Assembly: GCA_963974105.1 (NCBI GenBank)
Contig: CAXBBG010000001.1
Span: 445,256-509,255, forward strand
Origin: an uncultured Magnetococcales bacterium
GTDB lineage: Bacteria; Pseudomonadota; Alphaproteobacteria; UBA2136
DNA length: 64,000 nucleotides
Direction: 5' to 3'
Positions 4,573 to 41,116 of the stretch are shown in pieces. Position 1 is the first letter of the stretch, and each line of letters opens with the position of its first letter. The position numbers and the translations under genes were made by a program. The notes under the pieces were generated by a model. The model worked only from the letters and a program-made list of their open reading frames with translations, had not been told where the DNA came from and searched no databases.

Positions 4573-5208
4573 TTAAATTAATATTTTTAGCTCGTATAGT
4601 TTGTTTATAAGTGCATTTATGGGTAAACCTATAATTGTATGATAGTTACCTGTTACGCTTTTGAGAATATGTGGGGCAAGTGGGCTTTCTATTTTGCAAG
4701 CGCCTGCGATACCTATAACGCCGCCAGTTTCACTGGCTTCTTCAAGGTCAACATACTTTTCAGCTTCACGCATGCTAAAGTTTCTAAATTGTATAGTTGG
4801 TTCCTCTTGGTGCTGCCATATAACTTCACCGTTTATGCAAAGGGTGGCAGAGGTGATGAGTTGGCATGTGATACCGGATTGGCTGGTGAGTTGACCTATG
4901 GCTTCTGCTCTGTTTTTAGGTTTTGAGGTAAGTTCGTTGTTTATAACGCAGGCTTGGTCGCCAGATAATACATAAACATCGGGGTATTTTTTAGAAATTT
5001 CTAAGCCTTTATGGTTTGATATAGCTGTGACTTGATCGGAGATGTTTAAATGATTAACCGTTTGTTTGAACGACTCCTCTTGTGCGTCCTTTACAAGGTT
5101 TTTTCCAATGTGATAGCTAATATTTGCAAAGTCTAATACTTGCTTTCTTCCATAAGAATTTGATGCGAGGACTAATTTTTCAACTTGTTTAAACATTTGG
5201 TTAATCAA
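4573..5208 (-). CDS. maf: Maf-like nucleoside triphosphate pyrophosphatase (septum formation protein Maf family)
   Basis: LVLASNSYGRKQVLD near the N-terminus matches the Maf signature (LILAS.SPRR). It lies immediately upstream of coaE, a conserved pairing. Confidence 0.8.
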   Translation of the reverse strand: MINQMFKQVEKLVLASNSYGRKQVLDFANISYHIGKNLVKDAQEESFKQTVNHLNISDQVTAISNHKGLEISKKYPDVYVLSGDQACVINNELTSKPKNRAEAIGQLTSQSGITCQLITSATLCINGEVIWQHQEEPTIQFRNFSMREAEKYVDLEEASETGGVIGIAGACKIESPLAPHILKSVTGNYHTIIGLPINALINKLYELKILI

Positions 5209-5653
5209 CTCCTAGTACAAGTCTATTTTTAACAACCCATCCACTTACGTTGCCGTAAACAACTTTGCATAAATAGGGTGTGCAATGGTCAATTGCTAAT
5301 ATGACATTTGGCGCAAATCTTAAAACAGGTTTGGTGGCATCAGGCTTTTTATACATCACAAGTGGCTTGCCTTCACTCACGAGGCTTGTGCGCCTTTTTG
5401 ACAGTAGGCCTTTGTATATCCAACCGCTCTCACCTTCTATGTCCCTAATTTTATACCATGACTGGTATGTGTTTAGTATTTCGACAGGGTAGCCAAAGCG
5501 TTTGTATACCCACAGGATAGGGAACTGTGTTCCAGGGCCACTACGTACATTTACCTCATTTTTTCGCATACTTCCAAACATGGTATCCATGTCTGTTTCC
5601 TGTGCTGTGACAGGAAGTGTGTAGAGGCATAGAATTATAAGTAAAAATCGCAT
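5201..5653 (-). CDS. Secreted SH3b-domain protein
   Basis: Has an N-terminal signal peptide (MRFLLIILCLYTLPVTAQE) and two SH3b-like segments (VNVRSGPGTQFPILWVYKRFGYPVEIL...WYKI; VVYGNVSGWVVKNRLV). Its 3' end overlaps the maf start by 8 nt. Confidence 0.65.
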   Translation of the reverse strand: MRFLLIILCLYTLPVTAQETDMDTMFGSMRKNEVNVRSGPGTQFPILWVYKRFGYPVEILNTYQSWYKIRDIEGESGWIYKGLLSKRRTSLVSEGKPLVMYKKPDATKPVLRFAPNVILAIDHCTPYLCKVVYGNVSGWVVKNRLVLGVD

Positions 5654-9063: not shown

Positions 9064-11565
<2,502 letters not shown>

Positions 11566-11637
11566 TTAAAACTGCCGTATTGTATCATTTTTTGTTGTTT
11601 GAATCTAAGAAAAACAATGATTTTTACCCTTAAAAGC

Positions 11638-11670
11638 AAAAAAAACCCACACTCAAAGAATGTGGGTTGC
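11638..11670 (-). terminator. Rho-independent terminator after the PMM-like gene (minus strand)
   Basis: Minus strand reads CCCACATTCTTTGAGTGTGGG followed by TTTTTTTT. Confidence 0.65.
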
Positions 11671-11690
11671 TCGAGGGGGTGTTTTGAGGC

Positions 11691-12452
11691 TTAAATGGCA
11701 CATAAACCTTTCAAAATAGCCATTGTTTCATCGGGGTTTTTAACAGGTATGGTTTGGTTTTGAGTGCTTTCAGCTTTTAGCGCTTGAGCAAGTTCAAAAT
11801 CATTACCATTTTCATGCATTTGATCGCCAAAAAAGACGACGCTTTTATCGGAAATTTCACGTAGTTGATTTAAAACACTAGCCTTTGATAATTTCTTGTT
11901 AGAAAAATCAATGGTAGTTTTACCAAAAACTTGAAAATCTAGATTGGGTGTGTAATTGCAACAATTTAAAACGTTGCAAGCACGCATTAAGAAATTAGAT
12001 TTCTTGTTCCACTCAATAAAAGCTTCACGTTGTTCTGGTGTTGCATTTTGCCCCAAAGGGGTAAAGGCGCCAGTTGATGTACGCTTGATGATATGACCGC
12101 CTGTTTTGATAGGAAATTCACAACTTTCAAGTAAAGACTGTAAAAGGTCTTTTAAACCTTCTGGCCACGTGAATAGATGTTCAGCAATCACAGTGTGGTT
12201 GTGCACAACTTCCATGCCAAAGCAGCAAAAGCTATAAGCTTCGCTTAATATACTTTGTGGTATACGCTTTTCAAGATTTGCGTAGTCACGTGCAGTAGCA
12301 AAAGCAATGGTATAACCTTTGATGTTTTGGAGGTAGTCAAGTGTGTTACACATTTCGGCGCTTAAAGGCTGGCCCGAAGGTGCGATTGTTTCATCCATAT
12401 CAAACATTAAAATGTGTGATAAAGCGTTCGCTTTTTGGATTGAGAAATCCAT
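11691..12452 (-). CDS. HAD-IIB hydrolase of the eukaryotic-type phosphomannomutase (PMM/Sec53) family, paralog 1
   Basis: Has the DMDET HAD motif I, and a C-terminal FFGDQMHENGNDFELAQAL...PDETM block matching the PMM signature FFGD..GGND.E. It is clearly paralogous to 25086..25826, sharing motifs FTWPEGL, TGGH/TGDH and FFGD..GND. Confidence 0.6.
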   Translation of the reverse strand: MDFSIQKANALSHILMFDMDETIAPSGQPLSAEMCNTLDYLQNIKGYTIAFATARDYANLEKRIPQSILSEAYSFCCFGMEVVHNHTVIAEHLFTWPEGLKDLLQSLLESCEFPIKTGGHIIKRTSTGAFTPLGQNATPEQREAFIEWNKKSNFLMRACNVLNCCNYTPNLDFQVFGKTTIDFSNKKLSKASVLNQLREISDKSVVFFGDQMHENGNDFELAQALKAESTQNQTIPVKNPDETMAILKGLCAI

Positions 12453-12554
12453 AGAGGGTCCTTAGGAGGCTAAAAGCCGCCAAAATGGGGAAAAAGATAA
12501 AGTGTTTTTACTATTGTTATATATATAAGGGGGTGGGTTTAAAATTTCAAGTTT

Positions 12555-13619
12555 TTAGTCGATATCTTTTTTGAAACTTCCGTCACATGCACAGAAGAAT
12601 TGTACATTTTGAAGTGATGTGAACATTTCCTTTTCTGTACCTGTGAGCCATATTTGACTGCCAAGCTGAATAAGAGCGCTAAAAAACCTTTCCTTTGTTT
12701 GGCTGTCAAGGTGCGCAGCCATCTCGTCTAAAAGTATAATAGGTGCTTCGCCTGTTTGTTGATGGGTTAGGCGGCTATTGGCTAAAAGTATTTCCAGTAT
12801 TGCGCGCTTGTGTTGCCCTGTCGATGTTTGGGATAGGTTGATATTTTCAGGTTGAAGAATACCTTCAACGTCGCTGCGGTGCGGGCCGAAATGGCTACTG
12901 CCAAAACGTCCGTCTCTTGTGCGGTTTTCGTATAATTTTTCTTGAATACTTTTTTTATCAACCTTCTCCATACGTTCAAATGACCCTGTGAGTTTAAGGT
13001 CAATTGCATCAAGATGGGTTTTAAGCATTTTTAAGTAATGGTTGCGAGACTGGCTGATAAGAAAAGCAAAATGAGAGGCTTGCTCTTCCTCTATATCAAT
13101 CCATGTTGTGGCGGCATTTTCTTTCAGTAATTTAAGGCGCGCTTTTAAATGATGTTTATAGCGGTTTAAATGTTGTGCATGTTGAGGAAAATGACCAAAA
13201 GCAAGGCGGTCTAAAAATTCGCGTCTTTGGCTGGCGCTATCCATAAATAACCTGTCCATTTTTGGCGTGAACCATAAAATATTACCAAGGTTTGAAAGCT
13301 CGGCCTGGGCTTTGGCTGCTTCGCCATTTATTTTAAGCTGGCGCTTCCCTTTTTGGTAAAGCATACCAACTGTATTTTCTTCATCTTTATTGTTGATGTT
13401 GCTATGCAGTGCCCATGTTTTTTCATGATGCTTTATATGGTCATCTAACTTGTGGCGGTGCATGCCGCTGCCAGGAGAAAGTAGAGATATAGCTTCAAGA
13501 ATACTTGTTTTACCAGCGCCATTTTCACCGTAAAGTGCCACAATAGGCGCGTTATCTAATTGCAGATGAGCGCTTTCTATATTGCGGAAGTTGGTAAGCT
13601 TTAAACTGGTGATTTTCAT
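12555..13619 (-). CDS. recF: DNA replication and repair protein RecF
   Basis: MKITSLKLTNFRNIESAHL...GENGAGKTSILEAI (Walker A) and an ABC-signature-like LLDE region, in the dnaN-recF-gyrB context. Confidence 0.9.
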   Translation of the reverse strand: MKITSLKLTNFRNIESAHLQLDNAPIVALYGENGAGKTSILEAISLLSPGSGMHRHKLDDHIKHHEKTWALHSNINNKDEENTVGMLYQKGKRQLKINGEAAKAQAELSNLGNILWFTPKMDRLFMDSASQRREFLDRLAFGHFPQHAQHLNRYKHHLKARLKLLKENAATTWIDIEEEQASHFAFLISQSRNHYLKMLKTHLDAIDLKLTGSFERMEKVDKKSIQEKLYENRTRDGRFGSSHFGPHRSDVEGILQPENINLSQTSTGQHKRAILEILLANSRLTHQQTGEAPIILLDEMAAHLDSQTKERFFSALIQLGSQIWLTGTEKEMFTSLQNVQFFCACDGSFKKDID

Positions 13620-13810
13620 AAAAGCATTTTACATAGAAGTGTGCCGTTTATCAAAAGCTTTGTAAGCACTATTTGACATTTATGTGGGGATGGTGGTATA
13701 CAATTTGCGCTTGCTTATACTTCTTGCCTTTTTTGGAGGGTATTTGCGTTTCATGCATAGTTATAAAAGAACCCGTCGGTAAAATATATTATCGCTGGGT
13801 TTAATTTTGG

Positions 13811-13842
13811 TTAAAAAAAGCGCTGTATAAAAATACAACGCT
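13811..13842 (-). terminator. Rho-independent terminator between dnaN and recF (minus strand)
   Basis: Minus strand reads GCGTTGTAT-TTTTT-ATACAGCGC (9-bp stem with one G-U pair) followed by TTTTTTT. Confidence 0.55.
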
Positions 13843-13863
13843 TCCTGTAAAAGTTGCTAGCGA

Positions 13864-14979
13864 CTAGATCCGCATAGGCATCACAACGAAGAGGCTTGAT
13901 GCATCGTCTGGGTCTTTTACAATGACAGGTGACGTGTTGTCTTTAAAGTAAAACAGCATATCTTCACCTTCAATGTGTCCGCCAATTTCGCTTAAGTATT
14001 TAGCGTTAAAGCCGACGTCTAAGTCGTCAAAGTCGTATTCAACTTTTACTTCTTCGAGCGCATTTTCTTGGTCAGGGTTATTGGCGCTAATCATAAGGTT
14101 GTCCTTGTGGATACCAAATTTTATAGAGCGTGATTTTTCATGAGAAAGAATAGATACACGGTCAACGGCTTGCATTAAAGCTTGGCGTGACACATCCATT
14201 TCTTTTTTGTTATCAACAGGGATAACGCGTTCGTAGTCAGGGAATGTACCGTCGATAAGTTTGGATGTGAATGTAACGTCACCCGCTTCGGCTTGAAGTT
14301 TTTTCTCATTGATTGTGAGTTTAAGCTTGTCGCATGTTTCAGCAAGTTTACGTAGCTCAACTACAGTACGGCGTGGAATAATAACACCTGTTAGTTCAGC
14401 GGCGCCTTCTGGTAGTGCAAATTCTAAACGTGCAAGGCGGTGTCCATCTGTTGAAACGAAGCGTAGGTGTGGTTGGTCACCATCTGTTGAAACGTGCATG
14501 TATACACCGTTTAGGTACTGGCGTGTTTCTTCTGTAGAAACGGCAAATAGTGCTTTTGAAAGAATGCGACGTAAGTCAGTTGTATCCATTTCAAAAGTAA
14601 CACCATCGTCAAGGCGTGTCATGTCAGGAAAAGCATCTGCGTTTAGGCAAGCAAGTGAAAATTTGGCTTTGCCAGCACTTACAGCAAGGCGGTCACCTTC
14701 ATTTGAAAGTTCCATGCCAACCATAACCCCTTCAGGGATTTTGTTGATAATCTCATAAAGTTTGTGAGCGCTGACAGTTGTTACACCTTCTTGCTCGGTA
14801 AAAGCTTCAGTTGAGCCTTGAACGGTGATGTCGTTGTTTGTCGCTGTGATTTCAAGCAGGTTGCTTGTTGCTTTAAGTCTAACGTTAGAAAGGATGGCAA
14901 TACTTGTGCGTTTTTCAACGATAGATTGCGTGTGCTTTAACTGCTTGAGCAAAGTTTCTCTAGAGATGGATAATTTCAT
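13864..14979 (-). CDS. dnaN: DNA polymerase III beta sliding clamp
   Basis: 371 aa starting MKLSISRETLLKQLKHTQSIVEKRTSIAILSNVRL..., a three-domain clamp of typical length, located between dnaA and recF. Confidence 0.93.
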   Translation of the reverse strand: MKLSISRETLLKQLKHTQSIVEKRTSIAILSNVRLKATSNLLEITATNNDITVQGSTEAFTEQEGVTTVSAHKLYEIINKIPEGVMVGMELSNEGDRLAVSAGKAKFSLACLNADAFPDMTRLDDGVTFEMDTTDLRRILSKALFAVSTEETRQYLNGVYMHVSTDGDQPHLRFVSTDGHRLARLEFALPEGAAELTGVIIPRRTVVELRKLAETCDKLKLTINEKKLQAEAGDVTFTSKLIDGTFPDYERVIPVDNKKEMDVSRQALMQAVDRVSILSHEKSRSIKFGIHKDNLMISANNPDQENALEEVKVEYDFDDLDVGFNAKYLSEIGGHIEGEDMLFYFKDNTSPVIVKDPDDASSLFVVMPMRI

Positions 14980-15166
14980 AATCTGACCCTTGGTTTACGT
15001 TTCGTTTGTCTTTATATTTATACACTTAAAAACAGGAGAAAGGATACCACATGGAGCCATGAAGTAAAAGGCTTTTTGCGTATAAAAAAGCCATTGAGGG
15101 TGTAAATTGAGACAGGTGAATATTTAAAGTTGTTTTACGCTTAATTTTAAACTGTAAAAGCGTGAT

Positions 15167-16633
15167 TTAGAGGGTTTTGAGGATGTTTTCAAGTAGGTTA
15201 ATATCCTCAGCCATGCTTGTATCTGTATTTTGCAGCTTTTCCACTGTTTTAGCGGCGTGCATGACAGTTGTATGATCGCGCCCACCAAAAGCTTTGCCAA
15301 TTTCTGGGAATGACTTTGTGGTGAGGTGTTTAGCAATGTACATCGCAATTTGCCTTGGGCGTGCCACGGCGCGTGTGCGGCGGCTTGAACTCATATCACT
15401 CACTTTGATATTATAGTATTCCGCTACTTTTTTCTGAATTTCAGCAATCGGCACTTCACGGTCAACGTGTCTAAATAGATCTCTTAACAGGTCTTGCGCG
15501 GTATCGATGGTGATTTCTTGCTGAATAAGAGTGGAATGCGCTGCAATACGGTTAAGCGCGCCTTCAAGCTCACGGATGTTGCTATCAATTTTACTGGCCA
15601 GCATCATCGCTACAGGGCGGGTAAGCTCTATACCTAAGGAGGCTGCTTTTTGGTCTAAAATAGCTAGCCTTGTTTCAAGGTCTGGCTTGTGTACTTCTGT
15701 TGCAAGGCCCCAACCTAAGCGTGAACGCAAGCGGTCTTCAATACCCTGCATTTCGTGTGGTGACTTGTCGGATGTTAGAATAATTTGTTTACGTTCACTC
15801 ACCAAAGATTCAAAGGTGTGGAAAAACTCTTCTTGGGTTGCTTCTTTACCTGCAATAAACTGCACATCATCAATCATTAAAACATCTACATTACGGAAAG
15901 TGCTTTTAAATCCGTGTGTGTTTTTGTTTTTAAGAGCGCTGATAAAGTTGTGTAGGAATTTTTCGGCGCTGATGTACATCACGCGTCGACCTTGTTGGTG
16001 CTGGTTAATGTGCCAGGCAATGGCATGCATAAGGTGTGTTTTACCTAAACCGACGCCACCGTGTAAAATAAATGGATTGTATGCAATGTCAGAACTTTCA
16101 GCAATACGCTTCGCCGCAGCGTAAGCAAATTCGTTGGATTTACCTATCACGAAATTGTCAAAAGTAAAGCGTGGGTCAAGCGGGTTACCTTGGTAAGGCG
16201 CTGGTTTTTGTCCGTGTGATGACATATTTGGTTGTTGCATGTACGGCATGTGCTGCATGTGCGGCTGAACCATAATTGGAGCGGCTTGCATGGGTGCCTG
16301 TTGTGCAGGTGTAGGTGTAGGGGTTTGTGCCTGTGTTTGAACTTGCGCAGGGGCTGGTGGCGGTGTTGGTTCTGTCATGACCGCTTTAACTTTAAGCTCA
16401 AGGGTTACAGAACAGTCTAGCGCTTGCGATAAGCCTTTTTTTATAAGGTGGCTGTAATGGCGTAATACCCAGTCGTGCATAAAACGGGTGGGTACAATAA
16501 CAGTGACGTTTGCGCCTTGCGATGTTGTATAGTCAACTTCTAAAGGGGCAAGCCAGCTCATAAAGCTGTCTTCACCGACTTCATTCTTAAGCCAGTCCCT
16601 TACTTGGGCCCATGATGTTGAGTTGACTGTCAT
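15167..16633 (-). CDS. dnaA: Chromosomal replication initiator DnaA
   Basis: AAA+ region GGVGLGKTHLMHAIAW, a Pro/Gln-rich linker, and the C-terminal DNA-binding helix-turn-helix (RPRQIAMYIAKHLT...GKAFGGRDHTTVMHA). Confidence 0.97.
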   Translation of the reverse strand: MTVNSTSWAQVRDWLKNEVGEDSFMSWLAPLEVDYTTSQGANVTVIVPTRFMHDWVLRHYSHLIKKGLSQALDCSVTLELKVKAVMTEPTPPPAPAQVQTQAQTPTPTPAQQAPMQAAPIMVQPHMQHMPYMQQPNMSSHGQKPAPYQGNPLDPRFTFDNFVIGKSNEFAYAAAKRIAESSDIAYNPFILHGGVGLGKTHLMHAIAWHINQHQQGRRVMYISAEKFLHNFISALKNKNTHGFKSTFRNVDVLMIDDVQFIAGKEATQEEFFHTFESLVSERKQIILTSDKSPHEMQGIEDRLRSRLGWGLATEVHKPDLETRLAILDQKAASLGIELTRPVAMMLASKIDSNIRELEGALNRIAAHSTLIQQEITIDTAQDLLRDLFRHVDREVPIAEIQKKVAEYYNIKVSDMSSSRRTRAVARPRQIAMYIAKHLTTKSFPEIGKAFGGRDHTTVMHAAKTVEKLQNTDTSMAEDINLLENILKTL

Positions 16634-29035: not shown

Positions 29036-29056
29036 CTTCTTGAATAAAAACTTTTT

Positions 29057-29116
29057 TAGCACTCGCTGCATGTAAGTGCTAAAAAAGTTCTGGCACTTTG
29101 TTGAAAAGAGTGCTAA
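29057..29116 (+). promoter_or_regulatory. Two tandem CIRCE-like HrcA operators upstream of hrcA
   Basis: TTAGCACTC-N9-AAGTGCTAA (29057-29083; one mismatch to the TTAGCACTC-N9-GAGTGCTAA consensus) and CTGGCACTT-N9-GAGTGCTAA (29090-29116; perfect right arm, degenerate left arm). Confidence 0.75.
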
Positions 29117-29162
29117 AGTCCCCTATATTAAAATTATAAACATAACTTAGAGGAGGGGTTTT

Positions 29163-30242
29163 ATGGTTGTTGAGCTTTCAGATCGTTCGCGTGTCGTCTT
29201 AAGCGATATCGTTGATATTTACACTGAAACAGGCCAACCTGTGGGTTCTAAGGCGCTTTGTGAAAGATCTAAACTTGACCTTTCAGCGGCTTCCTTGCGT
29301 AATGTTATGTCTGACTTAGAAAAAAATGGCTATTTGGAAAGTTTGCACACTTCAGGTGGGCGTGCGCCTACAGAAGCAGGTTTTCGTTATTACACACAAA
29401 GTATGGTTGAAGTGCAAGAAGACTTGATTGGAGATGATTTAAAGGCGCAAATTTTAGCGCGTATTTCTGATGAGAAATCTTTGAAAGAAACAATTGATGA
29501 CCTTTCTATGTTTTTAGGGGAAATGACAGCCTGTACAGGTGTTGTAACTGCGCCTAAGTTTGATATGGAAACTTTAGATCAATTAGAGTTTTTACGTTTA
29601 AGTGGTGACCGTGTGCTGGCAATTATGGTGACAAAGAGCGGTGAAATTGAAAACCGCATTATTCACGTACCTGCCGATATTTCTATTGAAAAATTAAATG
29701 AGAGTTCAAAGCATTTACGCGAAGTTGTGGGTGGTAAAACCCTTTCAGACGCACGTGTTCTTATGATGCAGGAATTGATGGAACATAAAAATCATGTGGA
29801 TAACATGATGGATGAAATGATGCAGGTTGCAGACGAGTGGGCAGAGCCTAAAGCTACGGATACAGCATTGGTTGTTTCAGGCACACAAAACTTGTTCCAA
29901 TATCCAGAACTTGTGCGCGACCAACTTAAAAGCTTGTTCAAAGCTTTTGAAGAAAAACGCATGTTAATGGCCTTAATGAATGAAGTTTCTAAAGGTGAAG
30001 GCGTGCAGATTTTTGTAGGCACTGATTGCGGTATGCAAGATGTAAGTAGTTGCTCAATGGTGAGCACTTCTTACGGCAGTGCCGATAAAACAATTGTAGG
30101 GACGCTTGGGGTTGTTGGTCCGATGCGTATGAATTATAAAAGAGCGGTTCAGCTTGTTGACTATACAGGGAAAGTTCTCAGTAAAGTTATTGAAAAGCGT
30201 GGATTAGAGATAAGTCATCCGATGACTGAAATAAAAGGATAG
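29163..30242 (+). CDS. hrcA: Heat-inducible transcription repressor HrcA
   Basis: N-terminal winged helix (VLSDIVDIYTETGQPVGSKAL) and HrcA C-terminal domain at typical length, located upstream of grpE. Confidence 0.9.
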   Translation: MVVELSDRSRVVLSDIVDIYTETGQPVGSKALCERSKLDLSAASLRNVMSDLEKNGYLESLHTSGGRAPTEAGFRYYTQSMVEVQEDLIGDDLKAQILARISDEKSLKETIDDLSMFLGEMTACTGVVTAPKFDMETLDQLEFLRLSGDRVLAIMVTKSGEIENRIIHVPADISIEKLNESSKHLREVVGGKTLSDARVLMMQELMEHKNHVDNMMDEMMQVADEWAEPKATDTALVVSGTQNLFQYPELVRDQLKSLFKAFEEKRMLMALMNEVSKGEGVQIFVGTDCGMQDVSSCSMVSTSYGSADKTIVGTLGVVGPMRMNYKRAVQLVDYTGKVLSKVIEKRGLEISHPMTEIKG

Positions 30243-30246
30243 ATAA

Positions 30247-30813
30247 ATGAATACTGAAAACACAGTAGAAAATGAAGTAACTGAAGAAGTTGTTCAAGCA
30301 GAAGACAATGTTGTTGATATGCAAGAAACGAAAGAAGAAGTTTCTGAGTTTGATAAAGTGACAGCAGAGCGTGACGAGTGGAAAGATAAATCTTACCGCC
30401 TTGCAGCTGAAATGGAAAACCTAAAAAAACGTGGCGCTAAAGAAATTTCAGACGCACGTAAATATGGTGTATCAAACTTTGCGCGTGAATTATTAGATGT
30501 TCAAGATAATTTAGAGCGCGCCATTTCTGTCCTTGAAGGGGCAGATGTGGAAGAAGATAAATTGAAGCCACTTGTTGAGGGGGTTTCGATGGTAAAAGGT
30601 CAGCTTGAAAAAGCTTTTGACCGTATGAGTATTAAAAAGGTTGAATGTATGGGTGAAAAGTTAAACCCAGAGCTGCACCAAGCGGTGATGCAGGTTCCAA
30701 GTGAGGAAGCTGCGGGCACGGTGGTTCAAGAAATTCAACCTGGTTACACAATTTCAGACCGTTTACTACGCCCCGCAATGGTTGGCGTGGCAACAAAACT
30801 AGAAACAGCGTAA
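30247..30813 (+). CDS. grpE: Nucleotide exchange factor GrpE
   Basis: Acidic N-terminus, long helix (RLAAEMENLKKR) and C-terminal beta domain; located upstream of dnaK. Confidence 0.9.
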   Translation: MNTENTVENEVTEEVVQAEDNVVDMQETKEEVSEFDKVTAERDEWKDKSYRLAAEMENLKKRGAKEISDARKYGVSNFARELLDVQDNLERAISVLEGADVEEDKLKPLVEGVSMVKGQLEKAFDRMSIKKVECMGEKLNPELHQAVMQVPSEEAAGTVVQEIQPGYTISDRLLRPAMVGVATKLETA

Positions 30814-30843: not shown

Positions 30844-32778
30844 ATGGCTAAAGTAATTGGTATTGACCTTGGTACAACAAACTCATGTGTTGCGATCATG
30901 GATGGTAAAAACACGAAAGTAATTGAAAACGCAGAAGGCGCACGCACAACACCTTCTATTGTGGCTTATACAGAAGATGATGAGCGTCTTGTTGGTATGC
31001 CTGCTAAGCGTCAAGGTGTTACAAACCCAGAAAACACATTGTTCGCTATTAAGCGTTTAATTGGCCGTACAGCGAATGACCCAATGGTGGCAAAAGACAA
31101 AGAATTGATGCCTTACAAAATTGTAGAATCTGACAATGGTGATGCATGGGTTGAAGTGCACGGTAAAAAAATGTCTCCTTCAGAAGTTTCAGCGGCGATT
31201 CTTCAAAAAATGAAGAAAACAGCAGAAGATTATTTAGGTGAAACAGTAACAGATGCGGTTGTAACTGTACCTGCTTACTTTAATGATGCACAGCGCCAAG
31301 CAACAAAAGATGCTGGTAAAATTGCAGGTCTAAACGTTTTGCGTTTGGTAAACGAGCCAACAGCTGCAGCACTTGCTTATGGTCTTTCTGAGAGTGATGA
31401 TACAACAAAAACAGTTGTTGTTTATGACCTTGGTGGCGGTACATTTGACGTGTCTGTTTTAGAAATTGGTGACGGTGTTGTTGAAGTTAAAGCAACAAAT
31501 GGTGACACATTCTTAGGTGGTGAAGACTTTGACTCACTTATTATTGACTATCTAGCAAAAGAATTTGAAAAAGAAACAAGCATTAACTTACGTGGTGATA
31601 AGCTTGCGCTTCAACGTCTAAAAGACGAAGCTGAAAAAGCGAAGAAAGAACTTTCTTCTGCAACAACAACAGAAGTTAACCTTCCGTTTATTACAGCAGA
31701 TGCAACAGGTCCAAAACACCTTAATGTTAAGTTGACACGTGCGAAGTTAGAAGAACTTGTTGGTGACCTTGTACGTAAATCTATCGAACCATGTAAAACA
31801 GCGATGAAAGATGCAGGCGTAACAAACGCAGACATCAGCGAAGTTATCTTGGTTGGTGGTCAAACACGTATGCCTATGGTTCAAGCTGAAGTTGAGAAAT
31901 TCTTCGGCAAAGCGCCACATAAAGGTGTAAACCCTGATGAAGTTGTTGCTTGTGGTGCTGCTATTCAAGCAGGTATTCTTCAAGGTGATGTTAAAGACGT
32001 TCTTCTTTTAGATGTAACACCTCTATCACTTGGTATTGAAACTTTGGGTGGTGTGTTTACACGTTTAATCGACCGTAACACAACAATTCCAACGAAAAAA
32101 TCACAAGTATTTTCAACGGCAGAAGACAGTCAAAACGCTGTGACAATTCGTGTGTTCCAAGGTGAGCGCCCGATGGCTGCTGATAACAAGATTCTTGGAC
32201 AGTTTGACCTTGTTGGTCTACCTGCTGCCCCGCGCGGTGTGCCTCAGATTGAAGTAACTTTTGATATTGATGCAAACGGTCTTGTGCATGTAACAGCTAA
32301 AGATAAAGGTACAGGTAAAGAACAGCAAATCCGCATCCAAGCGTCTGGTGGTCTAAATGATGACGATATCGAGCGTATGGTGAAAGAAGCTGAAGAAAAT
32401 GCTGATGCCGATAAAGTGCTTAAAGAAAAAGTAGATGCGCGCAACCAAGGTGAAGCAATGGTTCACTCTGTGCGTAAAACTTTGGAAGAAAACAAAGCGC
32501 TTGCTTCAGACGAAGATGCAAAAGCAATTGAAGATGCAGCAAAAGACTTGGAAACGCTTCTTGAAGATGAAAATGCTTCAGTTGAAGACATAAAAGCGAA
32601 GACTGAAACGCTTACTCAAGCATCTATGAAGCTTGGTGAAGCAATCTACGCAAAACAACAAGCAGATGCAGGTGATGCGGCTCAAGGTGCTGGTGCAGAA
32701 TCTAAAGCGGATGACAATGTTGTTGATGCTGAGTTTGAAGAAGTAAAAGACGAAAAAGATGGTGAGAAATCAGCGTAA
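30844..32778 (+). CDS. dnaK: Chaperone DnaK (Hsp70)
   Basis: Hsp70 signatures [12 protein letters not shown] and [14 protein letters not shown], plus a full substrate-binding domain and lid. Confidence 0.98.
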
Positions 32779-32925
32779 TTTGTCTTAATTTGCAAAGTTG
32801 GGCTTGTTATTTAGATTAAGGTATACTATTTTGTAAATACAGTATACAGGTTATCTTATGATAAATGACAAGTTCAATTAAGTAATGGTTTAATTTTAAA
32901 CTATTGGTGAGTAAAGGTTTTAGTT

Positions 32926-33273
32926 ATGCGTTTGTTAGGTGTTTTTGTTTTAGTTGTGATGATTTTTTTAGCTCCTGCGGCATTTGCACGCAATGGCTCT
33001 AACTATCAAATGTACAGTTATGGCAGCCACGGTAACTCAAATTACAATGCTTATAGCTATAGCGGTAATGGCTCTTCTAATTACAAGGGTTATAATGCCA
33101 GATCTTATGGGCGTCATGGCTCTGCAGGTCGTAACTATTGGCGTGGTAATTATTCTACAAATCGCTATAACGATCCAACAGCCTATCGTATTGTTTATGT
33201 TAACAAGCCAAACCCGCCAATGCCATCCGGTAACTATGGACGTGCTGCAAATCGCGTACGTGTGAGTTACTAA
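32926..33273 (+). CDS. Small secreted low-complexity Asn/Tyr/Gly/Ser/Arg-rich protein inserted between dnaK and dnaJ
   Basis: Signal peptide [21 protein letters not shown], then [40 protein letters not shown]... (no Cys). It has its own upstream inverted repeat GTATACT-N13-AGTATAC at 32821-32847. Confidence 0.45.
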
Positions 33274-33293
33274 ACTTAAAGGAAAATATTTTC

Positions 33294-34433
33294 ATGTCTA
33301 AACGTGATTATTATGAAGTACTCGGTGTTCCAAAAGGTTCAGACGATGCCGCTTTAAAAAAAGCGTATCGCACCCAAGCAATGAAATACCACCCAGACAG
33401 AAACCCTGACGACAAAGAAGCTGAGGCTAAATTTAAAGAAGTAGGTGAGGCCTATGAAGCTTTAAAAGACCCACAAAAACGTAGTGCTTATGACCAGTTT
33501 GGTCATGCGGCATTTGAAAATGGCGGCGGCGGTGCTGGCGGCGGTTTTGGCGGTTTCGGCGGCGGTTCTGGCGGTTTTGGTGGGCATGACTTTAGCGACA
33601 TGTTTGAGGAGATGTTTAACGGCGGTGGGCGTGGTCGTACACGTGCAACCCGTGGTGATGACTTACGTTATAACCTTTCTGTTACACTTGAAGAGGCTTA
33701 TAGCGGTAAAGCTGTGCAGGTTAAAATACCAACAACAGTAGCTTGTGAAACGTGTGTGGGCAGTGGCGCCAAAAAAGGTAGCCAGCCTAAAACATGTGGT
33801 ACATGTGGTGGGCGTGGTGAAGTACGTGTTCAGCAAGGTTTCTTTGCAATGACACGCACCTGTGCATCTTGTCATGGACGTGGTCAAATTATTACAGATC
33901 CATGTAACACGTGTCATGGTAATGGTACTGTGAAGAAAGAAAAAACACTTTCTGTTAACATTCCAAAAGGTGTGGACGAAGGTACGCGTATCCGTGTGAG
34001 CGGTGAAGGTGCTGCAGGTGAAAATGGTGCGCCAAGTGGCGATCTGTATATTTTCATTCAACAAAAACCACATCAACTCTTTACCCGTGAAGGGCCGCAT
34101 ATTCTATTAGATATGCCAATTGACTTCGTGGAAGCAACTTTGGGTGGGTCTTTAGAGGTTCCAACGGTAGATGGTAAGAAAGCTTTGCTTAAAATACCAG
34201 AAGGTACGCAAAGTGGCACGCAGTTCCGTTTACGTGGCAAGGGTATGCCTGTGACAAATGGTAGTCAATATGGTGATATGTTTGTGAACTTAACGGTAGA
34301 AGTTCCAAGTAAGCTTTCTAAAAAGCAGAAGGAAATTTTGCGTCAGTTTAAGAATGAATATACAGGACGTAATCACCCTGAGCAGGACGGTTTCTTTAAA
34401 AAGGCGTCAAAGTTTTGGGGGCTTGCTTCTTAA
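33294..34433 (+). CDS. dnaJ: Chaperone DnaJ
   Basis: J domain with HPD ([10 protein letters not shown]), a Gly/Phe-rich linker, four CxxCxGxG zinc repeats and the C-terminal domain. Confidence 0.95.
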
Positions 34434-34472
34434 ACTCTTTTTCAATGAGGTTTTAAATATTTTAGTTTCGTC

Positions 34473-34505
34473 AACGCCTAGGTCAACCTAGGCGTTGGTT
34501 TTGCT
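34473..34505 (+). terminator. Rho-independent terminator after dnaJ
   Basis: CAACGCCTAGG-TCAA-CCTAGGCGTTG (11-bp stem) followed by GTTTTG. Confidence 0.65.
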
Positions 34506-39223: not shown

Positions 39224-41116
39224 TTAGTCATTTTCACTATCATTTAAAGCCTGATACGGACTGTTATGTGATGGTTGATACTCTTTTACAAGTTCTTTTA
39301 ATGTTTGAACAGCAAGAAATTCATTTTGTTGCTGGCAAGCAGCTTCAATTGCAGCTACTTTTTCTTGAGTTTCCTTTTTGGAGAGGCTGTTAGGATTTAC
39401 AAGAAATGTTTTTTCCATGTCTGTTTTTTCCATGCCTTCTTCATTGTACCACAGCTCTTCAAAAAGCTTTTCGCCAGGGCGAAGACCTGTAATCTCAATA
39501 TCAATATCTTCATAAGGCGTTAAACCGCTCAGGCGGATCATCTGCTCAGCAAGGTGCACAATTTTAACACTTTCACCCATATCAAGCATAAACAAATTAC
39601 CACCATGCCCTTTTGCCGCAGCCTGTAGAATAAGCTGTGATGCTTCGGGTATGGTCATAAAGTAACGTGTGGCATCTTTATGGGTTACAGTTAAAGGACC
39701 TCCTTCAATAATTTGTTTTGTAAAAAGAGGGATAACCGAACCGTTAGATCCTAAAACATTACCAAACCTCACAGCTATAATGTCTGTAGATGTATCTTTT
39801 GAAGCGCCTAAGCTATACATTTCTGCGGCACGTTTTGTAGCACCCATCACATTGGTTGGGTTAACAGCTTTGTCGGTTGAAACTATCACCATTTTAGGTA
39901 CGCCAGCTTCAATGGCAGCATTTGTTAAAGTCATTGTACCTAGTAAATTATTTTCAATGCCAGAAATAGGGTTTGCTTCTATCATTGGCACATGTTTATA
40001 AGCGGCGGCGTGAAATATAATGCTAGGCTTGTGTTCTTTTAAAACATTGTTTATGTCGTCTTTATTTTTGATGTCTACTAAAATGCTAGTGCGTTTTATT
40101 TTAGGGTATTTTTTATAAAATTCCATATCAACATGATAAAGAGCGTCTTCGCTGTGATCAAGCAAGAGCATATGTTCTGGGTTATGTTTGACAATTTGTC
40201 TGCAAAGCTCGCGTCCGATAGAGCCACCTGCTCCTGTCACAAGAATTGTTTTATTATTTAATAAATCTGCAATAGAAGAATTGTCTAACTCAACAGTATC
40301 GCGCCCTAAAAGGTCTTCAATTAACACCGGTTTAAGGTCTGTTAATTTATTGCCGTCTTTTAGGTTCGATATTGTAGGTATGCGTTTAACAATTATATTT
40401 TGAGCTGCCGCAATGTCTATGATTTTTTTAAGTACCTCGCCCTTAGCTTCGGCAATGATAAACATTTTCACAGGGAAGCCTTTTTTATCGAGTGAGAGAA
40501 GTGTTTTGGCAAGGTTGTCTAAGGCGCTTAAAACAGGGATACCATGGAAAAGGCGCCCTTTTTGATTATTATCTTCGTCAATTGCGCCAACAATATTAAA
40601 ACGCATTGGTTTTTGACGACGGTTTTCACGCACAAATAAATCGGCTGCATCGTTTACACCGATCAATAAAACATTTTCTTGTGACTTGTGTGAGTTCAGT
40701 GCCGTTTGAAAAACTTTATCATGCCAGAGTCTTAAGAATATACGCGGGCTTGCAGAGACGGCAATTTGCAATAAAGGTAGAATAATAAAGACACTGCGTG
40801 GGAAGTTTTCAAAACCAAGCGTTGTTGATAATATAAAGCCACCAGCAGCTATGGCAAAGACGGTGGCATAGCAAAAGCGCATAAGGTCGCGTGCTGTGGT
40901 ATAGCGCCATATGTTTTTATGCAGGTTAAAGTATACGTAGAAAGCTGCGCATATTACCATGTATACAAGACTGTATATCGTAAATAAAGATATGTTCTGG
41001 CTTGGTATATTGAAGTCATATCTCAGTAAAATGGCACACATCAAAGAAATACCCGCCACAAAGGTGTCAAAAGCTATTGAAATTGCAGGTTTGATAAAGT
41101 GTTTTACGTGAATCAC
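39224..41116 (-). CDS. Membrane-bound UDP-N-acetylhexosamine 4,6-dehydratase (WbpM/PglF/CapD family)
   Basis: Four N-terminal TM helices, a central Rossmann-like domain, and a C-terminal SDR dehydratase domain (VTGAGGSIGRELCRQI...YKHVP). Confidence 0.8.
   Translation of the reverse strand: MIHVKHFIKPAISIAFDTFVAGISLMCAILLRYDFNIPSQNISLFTIYSLVYMVICAAFYVYFNLHKNIWRYTTARDLMRFCYATVFAIAAGGFILSTTLGFENFPRSVFIILPLLQIAVSASPRIFLRLWHDKVFQTALNSHKSQENVLLIGVNDAADLFVRENRRQKPMRFNIVGAIDEDNNQKGRLFHGIPVLSALDNLAKTLLSLDKKGFPVKMFIIAEAKGEVLKKIIDIAAAQNIIVKRIPTISNLKDGNKLTDLKPVLIEDLLGRDTVELDNSSIADLLNNKTILVTGAGGSIGRELCRQIVKHNPEHMLLLDHSEDALYHVDMEFYKKYPKIKRTSILVDIKNKDDINNVLKEHKPSIIFHAAAYKHVPMIEANPISGIENNLLGTMTLTNAAIEAGVPKMVIVSTDKAVNPTNVMGATKRAAEMYSLGASKDTSTDIIAVRFGNVLGSNGSVIPLFTKQIIEGGPLTVTHKDATRYFMTIPEASQLILQAAAKGHGGNLFMLDMGESVKIVHLAEQMIRLSGLTPYEDIDIEITGLRPGEKLFEELWYNEEGMEKTDMEKTFLVNPNSLSKKETQEKVAAIEAACQQQNEFLAVQTLKELVKEYQPSHNSPYQALNDSEND

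Follow-up and report, generated by a model that had tools for sequence, protein, structure and literature searches.

The dnaK operon of an uncultured Magnetococcales bacterium carries, between dnaK and dnaJ, an additional gene whose small product is very probably a real exported protein. The gene, here called X, is an ATG-initiated open reading frame (ORF) of 115 codons lying in the 515-nt gap between the two chaperone genes; it was studied within a stretch of 64,000 nucleotides (hereafter the window). Comparison with its relatives indicates that X is a genuine protein-coding gene under purifying selection and that it belongs to an orphan family, previously undescribed, that is confined to a small clade of uncultured marine alphaproteobacteria and sits directly behind dnaK in every lineage. 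The reading that we favor, with a probability of around 0.45 for the whole, is that X encodes a disordered protein that is exported to the envelope, is coexpressed with the Hsp70 system, and has a protective role. An original prediction, made from the letters of the window, had described the ORF as encoding a secreted, possibly aggregation-prone protein with its own palindromic, operator-like site; what it observed is confirmed in part, and its interpretation is supported in part.

A search of 5.8 billion proteins returned an identical protein (NCBI/TARA) and three relatives of 40 to 56% identity. When a HMMER profile was run exhaustively against all 1.84 billion cluster representatives, it retrieved six proteins, all of the X family, and a second profile search enlarged the family to 11 clusters. 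Gene context led to member L025, a 111-aa ORF adjoining a DnaJ of 66% identity, and a degenerate DNA pattern led to member L026, an incomplete X on a 1.4-kb JGI contig; the other match of this pattern, on a high-GC contig (L027), is due to chance. The family totals 13 lineages, window included, all of them metagenomes or metagenome-assembled genomes (MAGs) labeled Alphaproteobacteria or Pseudomonadota and several of them marine (TARA, Red Sea). Genome contigs searched with the single X protein gave no match and, when searched with the alignment, gave only the MAG of P0002; metagenome contigs scanned with the X alignment gave no match. The ORF was predicted independently by the gene callers of several sources. 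One such call (P0010, 124 aa; L018:5001-5375) begins 13 codons early, the alignment and an AAGAGG Shine-Dalgarno sequence placing the true start at MLLKVG. Thirteen database entries so far carried as "hypothetical" or left without annotation can thereby be grouped into a single family whose architecture and genomic signature are defined. The similar ORF that the original prediction proposed to look for between dnaK and dnaJ of related genomes therefore exists, in all 13 lineages.

Coding had been considered uncertain because an alternative frame is also open. A +1 ORF starting with TTG (32984-33265, 93 aa) does exist; it is the longest open stretch (97 codons) between stops of the +1 frame and arises as a side effect of NNY-rich codon usage. 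Across the eight lineages compared at the codon level, window included, the +1 frame has four to six stops within the ORF span and frame 0 is the sole frame without internal stops, which refutes the doubt. Moreover, the proportion of nonsynonymous differences (pN) is lower than that of synonymous differences (pS) in every pair, with values of 0.168 and 0.594 for L004 versus L005 and the other pairs near synonymous saturation. By segment, pN is lowest for the C-terminal module, at 0.28, compared with 0.43 for the low-complexity part and 0.48 for the signal peptide. At the protein level, identity between lineages is 33 to 56%.

These data bear directly on the possibility that X is not a gene and that the spacer instead encodes a small RNA (sRNA) similar to tpke11, or an attenuator, with an accidental ORF. 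Such a reading draws on the presence of an sRNA in the dnaK-dnaJ spacer of Escherichia coli and Salmonella (PMC12077118) and on the shortness and low complexity of the ORF. It is effectively refuted by the codon, frame, and alignment evidence, since the ORF remains open across 13 lineages at this level of divergence, with saturated synonymous sites and pN below pS, and since its signal peptide and C-terminal module are conserved. The agreement among several gene callers also speaks against it, as does the lack of any Rfam match in the spacer, at either E ≤ 1 or the gathering threshold; the scan of the whole window gave one tRNA-Arg elsewhere only.

By rule-based assessment (the -3/-1 rule, hydropathy, and n-region charge), the X precursor carries a canonical Sec-type (signal peptidase I) signal peptide. 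The well-formed peptide pointed out in the original prediction is indeed present in the window, with a positive n-region, a hydrophobic core, and A-x-A at -3/-1. All 12 aligned members have K or R within the first four residues, a hydrophobic core (best 10-residue Kyte-Doolittle window, 2.05 to 3.64), and (A/S)-x-A before the predicted cut, so that position -3 is always small and position -1 always A; Arg follows the predicted cut directly in 10 of the 12. Neither a lipobox Cys nor a twin-arginine motif was found in these members. The genome also has genes for LolA, a DsbA-like protein, and PCuAC, a periplasmic copper chaperone, which marks the organism as a diderm possessing a periplasm. Once exported as predicted, mature X cannot meet DnaK or DnaJ.

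The mature chain, of 78 to 102 aa, is free of Cys and basic (pI 9.1 to 10.5; computed net charge of +3 to +11 at pH 7). Computing its composition confirmed the Tyr/Gly/Ser/Asn richness that had been noted: mature X of the window contains 17% N, 17% Y, 14% S, 13% G, and 11% R. Over 12 lineages, these five residues make up 73% of the region between the signal peptide and the C-terminal module, in which Tyr is 4.9-fold enriched relative to the window proteome and Leu, Ile, and Glu are at about 0.1-fold. This bias is present in every lineage despite the divergence of the sequences. Close to the mature chain's N terminus, a Y-x-x-Y-x-Y(G) motif (Y27, Y30, and Y32) is found in at least 90% of the members. 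The C-terminal module of 35 residues reads YNDPTG-(K/R)(R/K)-(I/V)-x-(V/I)-...-PP(L/M)PSGNYGRA-x-NR-x-R-x-(A/S)-(Y/F), with P84, P100, G102, Y104, and R106 invariant. The direct repeats that were found measure 7 to 27 nt, occur in two to three copies each, and are not tandem.

Mature X is predicted to be intrinsically disordered. The charge-hydropathy rule classes all 12 members as disordered, and AlphaFold2, run on an 8-sequence alignment, gave a mean pLDDT of 52 and a pTM of 0.17, with no secondary structure other than the helix of the signal peptide and a low-confidence helix at residues 103 to 114. Searches of Pfam and NCBIfam with the window protein, and of Pfam with 12 members (E ≤ 10), yielded noise only, the best being Apidaecin (E = 0.16, one member) and the SCO2102 sporulation regulator (E = 0.064). 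No match to BA14K (PF07886) was found in the 12 members at E ≤ 10, nor any to Curlin_rpt or another Pfam repeat family, and the profile found nothing below E = 0.18 among PDB sequences.

This profile of the protein argues against the proposal that X is aggregation-prone or amyloid-like. The composition does resemble that of prion-like low-complexity domains, and one short beta-prone stretch, RIVYV, is conserved. However, hydrophobic residues make up just 9 to 16% of the mature chain, the positive charge is high, the chain is predicted to be disordered, and it shows neither imperfect tandem repeats of the curlin type nor a Pfam match. The original prediction also allowed for a host-interaction factor; the present data, which stem from marine metagenomes, bear on such a role in neither direction. 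The second half of the aggregation proposal, a palindromic operator, is considered below with the dnaK-X spacer.

Other features of the mature chain recall outer membrane proteins (OMPs). The C-termini of OMPs activate DegS and DegP, and SurA prefers Ar-x-Ar motifs. X could thus be a heat-induced periplasmic mimic of an unfolded OMP that is read by HtrA/DegP/DegS PDZ domains, SurA, or BAM and pre-activates the envelope response each time the cytoplasm mounts its heat shock response. An Rx(A/S)(Y/F)-COOH end is present in 11 of the 13 members, the near-invariant Y27, Y30, and Y32 form an Ar-x-Ar motif, and the Tyr/Gly/Ser/Asn/Arg composition is reminiscent of beta-barrel proteins. Nevertheless, the residue at -3 is variable (V, L, Q, N, T, P, or A), so that the Y-x-F rule of E. 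coli does not apply, two members lack the tail, and no HtrA-type gene lies nearby. OMPs with which the C terminus might be compared were sought in the window, and none was recognized. We regard a mimic of this kind as unlikely.

X lies directly 3' of dnaK in every lineage, within a hrcA-grpE-dnaK-X-(...)-dnaJ cluster; the upstream dnaK was verified by the C terminus of DnaK (ending in KSA) in eight lineages and by the Pfam HSP70 label in the others, the short contigs and the incomplete L026 being assigned by synteny alone. The dnaK-X gap measures 92 to 154 nt. On the other side, 5 to 145 nt separate X from the next gene, which is dnaJ, an ORF of the DUF3977 family, or a HAD hydrolase, depending on the lineage. 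In most lineages dnaJ follows after 20 to 145 nt. The next gene starts 5 to 20 nt past the X stop in the window, L012, L018, and L025, and an AT-rich gap of 133 to 145 nt separates X from dnaJ in L001, L004, and L005. The DUF3977 ORF lies between X and dnaJ in L012 (5348-5611) and L018 (5381-5644), with 87 aa, and in L025 (5761-6000), with 79 aa; in all three, its stop overlaps the dnaJ start. No DUF3977 homologue was found in the window. In L025, a HAD hydrolase also lies between X and dnaJ, and genes for an isochorismatase and an acyltransferase separate grpE from dnaK. The position of X is thus stable amid changing neighbors, which argues against a passive passenger and links X with the 3' side of dnaK and not with dnaJ.

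The DnaJ proteins of X-bearing lineages are 75 to 83% identical to that of the window, the next-best DnaJs are at 69% and 66%, and alphaproteobacteria in general do not exceed 63%. Besides that of the window, there are 11 in-clade DnaJ clusters; X is linked to nine of them, and the remaining two (P0016 and P0018) lie outside the comparison. The outgroup L024 (DnaJ identity of 69%) was uninformative, its contig beginning 63 nt before dnaJ. Since X proteins of the same lineages share 33 to 56% identity, X evolves much faster than DnaJ.

This pace of evolution is a point in favor of a different role, in which X would be a structural or adhesive protein, secreted or belonging to the envelope or surface, that stands outside proteostasis and whose gene, equipped with a separate promoter, happens to occupy the dnaK-dnaJ spacer. 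Identity of about 45% where DnaJ is at about 80% is typical of surface proteins, X is preceded by a conserved promoter-like element of its own, and the AT-rich gap before dnaJ in L001, L004, and L005 could make it a separate unit. We also take its Tyr/Arg/Gly/Asn composition to be comparable to that of adhesive proteins, such as mussel foot protein 3, and to that of the low-complexity part of BA14K-like proteins. Against this, a passenger would not be expected to hold its exact position while DUF3977, HAD hydrolase, isochorismatase, and acyltransferase genes come and go; in addition, the -35 element and spacing of its promoter are those of the hrcA heat-shock promoter, no BA14K domain was detected, and Cys is lacking. 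Among the alternatives weighed here, we rate this one the least improbable, while still holding it to be rather unlikely.

The side of X on which the neighborhood is constant also matters for another alternative, namely, that X is a cis-acting leader or monitoring substrate of the SecM, VemP, MifM, or ApdP type, a disposable peptide that engages Sec and tunes dnaJ translation through C-terminal arrest. Export would relieve this arrest, so that the supply of DnaJ would be coupled to the state of export or of the chaperones. With 99 to 124 aa and a signal peptide, X shares two of the features by which such substrates have been searched for (a small ORF of 80 to 200 aa, unknown function, and an N-terminal export signal; PMC7897499), and its C terminus is its most conserved part. 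The conserved segment of about 35 residues would be roughly as long as the ribosomal exit tunnel, most members contain PP(L/M)P, and the next gene follows closely in L012, L018, L025, and the window. However, the downstream gene is never sec or yidC and varies among dnaJ, the DUF3977 ORF, and the HAD hydrolase, at gaps ranging from 5 to 145 nt; the constant flank is that of dnaK and not the downstream one. No conserved structure over the 3' end of X masks the next Shine-Dalgarno sequence, and that of dnaJ in the window is predicted to be unpaired. The conserved C-terminal module has no RAPP, RxPP, or GIRAGP-type motif, and the conservation of the middle composition and of Y-x-x-Y-x-Y argues for selection on the mature polypeptide. 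A monitoring role thus appears improbable, slightly more so than mimicry of an OMP.

X probably has its own promoter in the dnaK-X spacer, judging from the alignment of this region over ten lineages. In seven of these lineages, TGTATACTAT comes at a constant distance after GGGCTTGAAA, the window counterpart of the pair being GGGCTTGTT...GGTATACTAT. CTTG and a TA..TA -10 core form invariant columns. Seven relatives have an exact CTTGAA with N16; the -10 element is ACTA(T/A)nT in L004, L005, L012, and L015 and a close variant, ACTATTA or ATTATTG, in L018, L020, and L022. For comparison, the RpoH1 promoter consensus of Sinorhizobium meliloti is CTTGAA-N15-16-CCTATAT (PMC4843759), and the RpoH-type promoter of Rhizobium etli is cTTGaa-N16-CgATaT (PMC4167512). 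The window element agrees with the RpoH consensus at 4 of 6 positions in the -35 (CTTGTT) and at 5 of 7 in the -10 (ACTATTT). Two other readings of the spacer, as an E. coli-type sigma-32 promoter (CTTGAA-N13-14-CCCCATNT) and as a sigma-70 promoter with TATACT as the -10, were rejected because their spacings of 10 to 13 nt do not fit. A fit is obtained only with the alphaproteobacterial spacing or with the sigma-70 -10 placed 5 nt further downstream.

The promoter of hrcA, at the head of the same cluster, provides a useful comparison. A search for CIRCE, the operator of HrcA (TTAGCACTC-N9-GAGTGCTAA, up to three mismatches), gave two matches in the window, versus 0.01 expected, and both precede hrcA; at this threshold none lies in the dnaK-X spacer (32779-32925). 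The right arm of the second copy sits within the spacer of the hrcA promoter, an arrangement that is conserved in all relatives examined (29039-29128 in the window). In these relatives the promoter is nTTGAAAAGAGTGCTAA-N3-CC(C)CTATAT-like (nTTGAAAAGAGTGCTAA-N3-CCCCTATAT), except that the -10 is degenerate in L001 (CGCCAATAT) and is CCCCTATAA in L012. The placement of CIRCE in the spacer suggests dual control of one promoter by RpoH and HrcA. The hrcA promoter fits the RpoH consensus better than does the dnaK-X element of the same genomes, and the presence of this better copy points to a use of such promoters for heat-shock genes in these organisms. Its -35 and spacing recur in the dnaK-X spacer of eight lineages. 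The occurrence of a conserved, heat-shock-type promoter-like element upstream of X makes coexpression with the chaperone genes plausible, as had been proposed. For heat-shock (sigma-32) control of X in particular, we consider the motif evidence to leave the odds about even.

The same region contains the inverted repeat GTATACT-N13-AGTATAC that was proposed to be a dedicated operator, and the repeat is present where it had been placed. It consists of two self-complementary GTATAC hexamers whose starts are 21 nt apart, box 1 (32821-32826) falling within the spacer/-10 region of the promoter-like element and box 2 (32842-32847) falling about at the expected transcription start. Its reading as an operator, however, is not supported. 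When the 147-nt dnaK-X spacer is shuffled with its dinucleotides preserved, 729 of 2000 shuffles (36%) contain a perfect 7-nt inverted repeat whose arms are 0 to 20 nt apart, and the background rate of such repeats across the window is about 0.43 per 147 nt; the repeat is thus of chance quality. The closest two relatives, L001 and L014, lack box 1. GTATAC-like boxes do recur, in that L004, L005, L012, L018, L020, and L022 have a second, often imperfect one, but the box spacing there is 15 to 17 nt, which makes a range of 15 to 21 nt with the window, and the repeat is not CIRCE. From its position in the alignment, box 1 is better explained as the spacer/-10 part of the conserved promoter-like element. 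Together with the properties of the protein described above, these results render an amyloid-like X under a palindromic operator very unlikely. One other GTATAC-N(8-25)-GTATAC pair occurs in the window (40931-40966), inside a 605-aa ORF of the opposite strand (2 found versus 0.02 expected).

The potential RNA structures of the region differ among lineages. Folded as RNA, the inverted repeat reaches -6.7 kcal/mol (z = -0.9), and a role of this hairpin as a terminator or attenuator was rejected because it is too weak and lacks a T run. Seven relatives have a 7-bp GC-rich hairpin about 25 nt 5' of the X start (L004:2750-2775, L005:5955-5980, L012:4955-4985, L018, L020:600-630, L022:4005-4030, and L015:1655-1700) that is absent in the window, L001, and L014. 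Its loop is a GNRA tetraloop (GTAA, GTGA, GAAA, or GCAA) in five of them and TTTTT in L012, and that of L015 is longer and of another sequence. The stem shows one compensatory change from G-C to A-U, and no T run follows it; this hairpin could be a stabilizer of the 5' untranslated region (UTR) or a processing site. In L015 (2040-2075), L020 (1025-1050), and L022 (4420-4440), a small hairpin, CTTCTAA(A)TTTTGGAGG, in which a CUUCU lying upstream base-pairs with the Shine-Dalgarno sequence of dnaJ, looks like an RNA thermometer. This element is absent in the window, where dnaJ starts 20 nt after X.

In the window, X and dnaJ would lie on one transcript, since dnaJ follows so closely and no terminator lies between them; no terminator-like site was reported on the + strand of the dnaK, X, and dnaJ intervals (32779-33293). 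The motifs point to cotranscription of X and dnaJ, together with probable read-through into X from hrcA.

Taken as a whole, the favored explanation runs as follows. X would be transcribed both by read-through from the CIRCE-controlled, sigma-32-type hrcA promoter and from the internal dnaK-X promoter, whose -35 (CTTGAA), spacing, and -10 core (CTAT) are as at hrcA. The protein would be exported by Sec, and its mature chain would act in the periplasm or envelope. There, the disordered Tyr/Arg-rich chain might shield envelope proteins or membranes under heat or other proteotoxic stress, as a protective or holdase-type factor working independently of ATP, with the C-terminal module providing a specific contact with a partner or the membrane. 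The Hsp70 regulon would thereby be extended to a compartment that lacks ATP. The envelope-protective function, which we deduce from context and composition, is the more tentative part of this explanation, and we put it at somewhat over one chance in three.

Several observations weigh against this explanation. The protective function has no support from homology, and no known chaperone family matched X in the Pfam, NCBIfam, and PDB searches. Fast evolution and restriction to one clade fit an accessory surface or adhesion role outside proteostasis as well. The family can do without the RxRx(A/S)(Y/F) tail, since it is missing from the divergent P0008 and L025, and the low AlphaFold2 confidence may stem in part from the small alignment. 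With respect to regulation, the window has CTTGTT instead of CTTGAA as the -35, its -10 lacks the C-run of the hrcA promoter, and no rpoH was seen among the genes of the window. Furthermore, the same element also admits a sigma-70 reading (TTGAAA-N17-TATnnT, which in the window is TTGTTA-N17-TATTTT), so that sigma-32 control, and with it heat induction from this promoter, is one of two possible readings. Finally, the evidence base consists of metagenome assemblies throughout.

We also speculate on a bolder version, which we think has a small chance of being correct, a shade below that of the surface or adhesive role. Here X would be a new kind of heat-shock effector, prion-like, rich in Tyr/Arg "stickers," and exported under the control that governs Hsp70, that forms periplasmic condensates or coatings on unfolding envelope proteins or acts as a decoy of an unfolded OMP that switches on envelope proteases. 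If true, such an effector would hard-wire the cytoplasmic heat shock response to envelope quality control in bacteria without a classical sigma-E circuit.

The interest of X extends beyond the clade in which it is found. Few gene clusters are as well studied or as conserved as the dnaK operons, and here a conserved extra gene for what is very probably an exported protein lies inside one; our literature search, of limited coverage, found no paper on a gene for a secreted protein between dnaK and dnaJ. The location of X suggests an undescribed link between protein quality control in the cytoplasm and in the envelope. X is also a short natural chain, predicted to be secreted, of the Tyr/Gly/Ser/Arg-rich low-complexity type, on which most work has concerned phase separation in eukaryotes and adhesives of marine origin. 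Should it prove to be a periplasmic stress-protective disordered protein, it would represent a new class of ATP-independent chaperones; should it be a clade-specific surface protein only, the outcome would be the annotation of an orphan family.

Table 1. Features of the hrcA-grpE-dnaK-X-dnaJ region in window coordinates
Feature	Position	Strand	Basis or remark
CIRCE (HrcA operator), two copies	29056-29082 (1 mismatch), 29090-29116 (3 mismatches)	+	Upstream of hrcA; conserved in relatives
Sigma-32-type promoter-like element gTTGAA-N16-CCTATAT	29100-29128	+	Matches S. meliloti RpoH1 consensus
hrcA	29163-30242	+	ORF translation; Pfam families of syntenic genes in relatives
grpE	30247-30813	+	ORF translation; Pfam families of syntenic genes in relatives
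dnaK	30844-32778	+	ORF translation; Pfam families of syntenic genes in relatives
Promoter-like element CTTGTT-N16-ACTATTT	32803-32831	+	Conserved position in 10-lineage alignment
Inverted repeat GTATACT-N13-AGTATAC	32821-32847		79 nt before X ATG
Palindrome TTATCTTATGATAA	32851-32864		Presumed 5' UTR; kept (TTATCTYATGATAA) solely in nearest relatives L001 and L014
Shine-Dalgarno-like AAAGG of X	32913-32917	+	8 nt before ATG; AAGAGG or AAGG at same place in relatives
Gene X	32926-33273	+	115-codon ATG ORF inside dnaK-dnaJ gap
X signal peptide, codons 1-21 (predicted)	32926-32988	+	Predicted cut AFA|RN
X low-complexity S/G/Y/R/N-rich part, codons 22-80	32989-33165	+	Carries conserved N-terminal Y-x-x-Y-x-Y-G
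X conserved C-terminal module, codons 81-115, plus stop	33166-33273	+	Lowest pN of the three segments
dnaJ Shine-Dalgarno AAGGA	33279-33283	+	Read from sequence
dnaJ	33294-34433	+	ATG 20 nt past X stop
Intrinsic-terminator-like hairpin, 13-bp stem and T run	34470-34499	+	Closes operon after dnaJ

Elsewhere in the window, a few features were recorded in passing. On the - strand, mutM/fpg looks split (1620-2447), with the N-terminal glycosylase domain at 2037-2444 and the H2TH domain at 1623-1964, which may come from a frameshift or an assembly error or mark a pseudogene; just upstream of it (2455-2483) is a sigma-32-like motif, CTTGAAGTTTACAATAAGGCACACTATAT. An origin-proximal cluster on the - strand (9064-16633) comprises dnaN, recF, a HAD/phosphomannomutase (PMM)-like gene, gyrB, and a 488-aa ORF that is probably dnaA, and ahead of the HAD-gyrB pair lies CTTGAAATTTTAAACCCACCCCCTTATAT (12523-12551, - strand), a sigma-32-like motif of very good quality. 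The matches upstream of mutM and of HAD/PMM-gyrB neither support nor contradict the motif. At 5204-5653, the - strand encodes an exported protein of 150 aa with a bacterial SH3 (SH3_4) domain; X has the conserved PP(L/M)P.

The comparison with known systems helps to place X. Monitoring substrates are similar to it as small ORFs with an export signal, a variable middle, and a conserved C terminus in a protein-homeostasis operon, but the sec or yidC neighbor and the Shine-Dalgarno stem-loop that define the SecM, VemP, MifM, ApcA, ApdA, and ApdP class are lacking in X. The BA14K-like proteins of Rhizobiales and Tyr/Arg/Gly/Asn-rich adhesive proteins such as mussel foot protein 3 have in common with X a signal peptide ahead of a basic, low-complexity stretch rich in Tyr, Arg, Gly, Asn, and His. 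The BA14K-like proteins differ in having a domain (PF07886) bounded by Cys, whereas X is Cys-free and does not match that family; compared with mussel foot protein 3, there is no evidence of DOPA chemistry for X. An extra element in the dnaK-dnaJ gap is also known from enterobacteria, in which the long spacer encodes the tpke11 sRNA, which may allow differential expression of dnaK and dnaJ (PMC12077118); in the case of X, the element is a predicted translated gene with a promoter-like site. DafA of Thermus thermophilus is, like X, a very small, lineage-restricted accessory protein of a dnaK/dnaJ cluster. It is cytosolic and forms a DnaK3-DnaJ3-DafA3 complex (PMC3727329), whereas X has a predicted cleavable signal peptide and showed no similarity to DafA in any search. 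The closest concepts for the function proposed here are, by analogy, the small stress-induced periplasmic chaperones, although no sequence or fold is held in common. Spy, HdeA/HdeB, CpxP/ZraP, and Skp resemble X as small exported proteins apparently expressed in a stress regulon, and disorder may be a working state in both cases; HdeA/B and Skp are described as using disordered states (PMC9657021, PMC7577714). These chaperones have helical folds and belong to known families, unlike X, which has no predicted fold or family and a Y/G/S/R/N composition that sets it apart from them.

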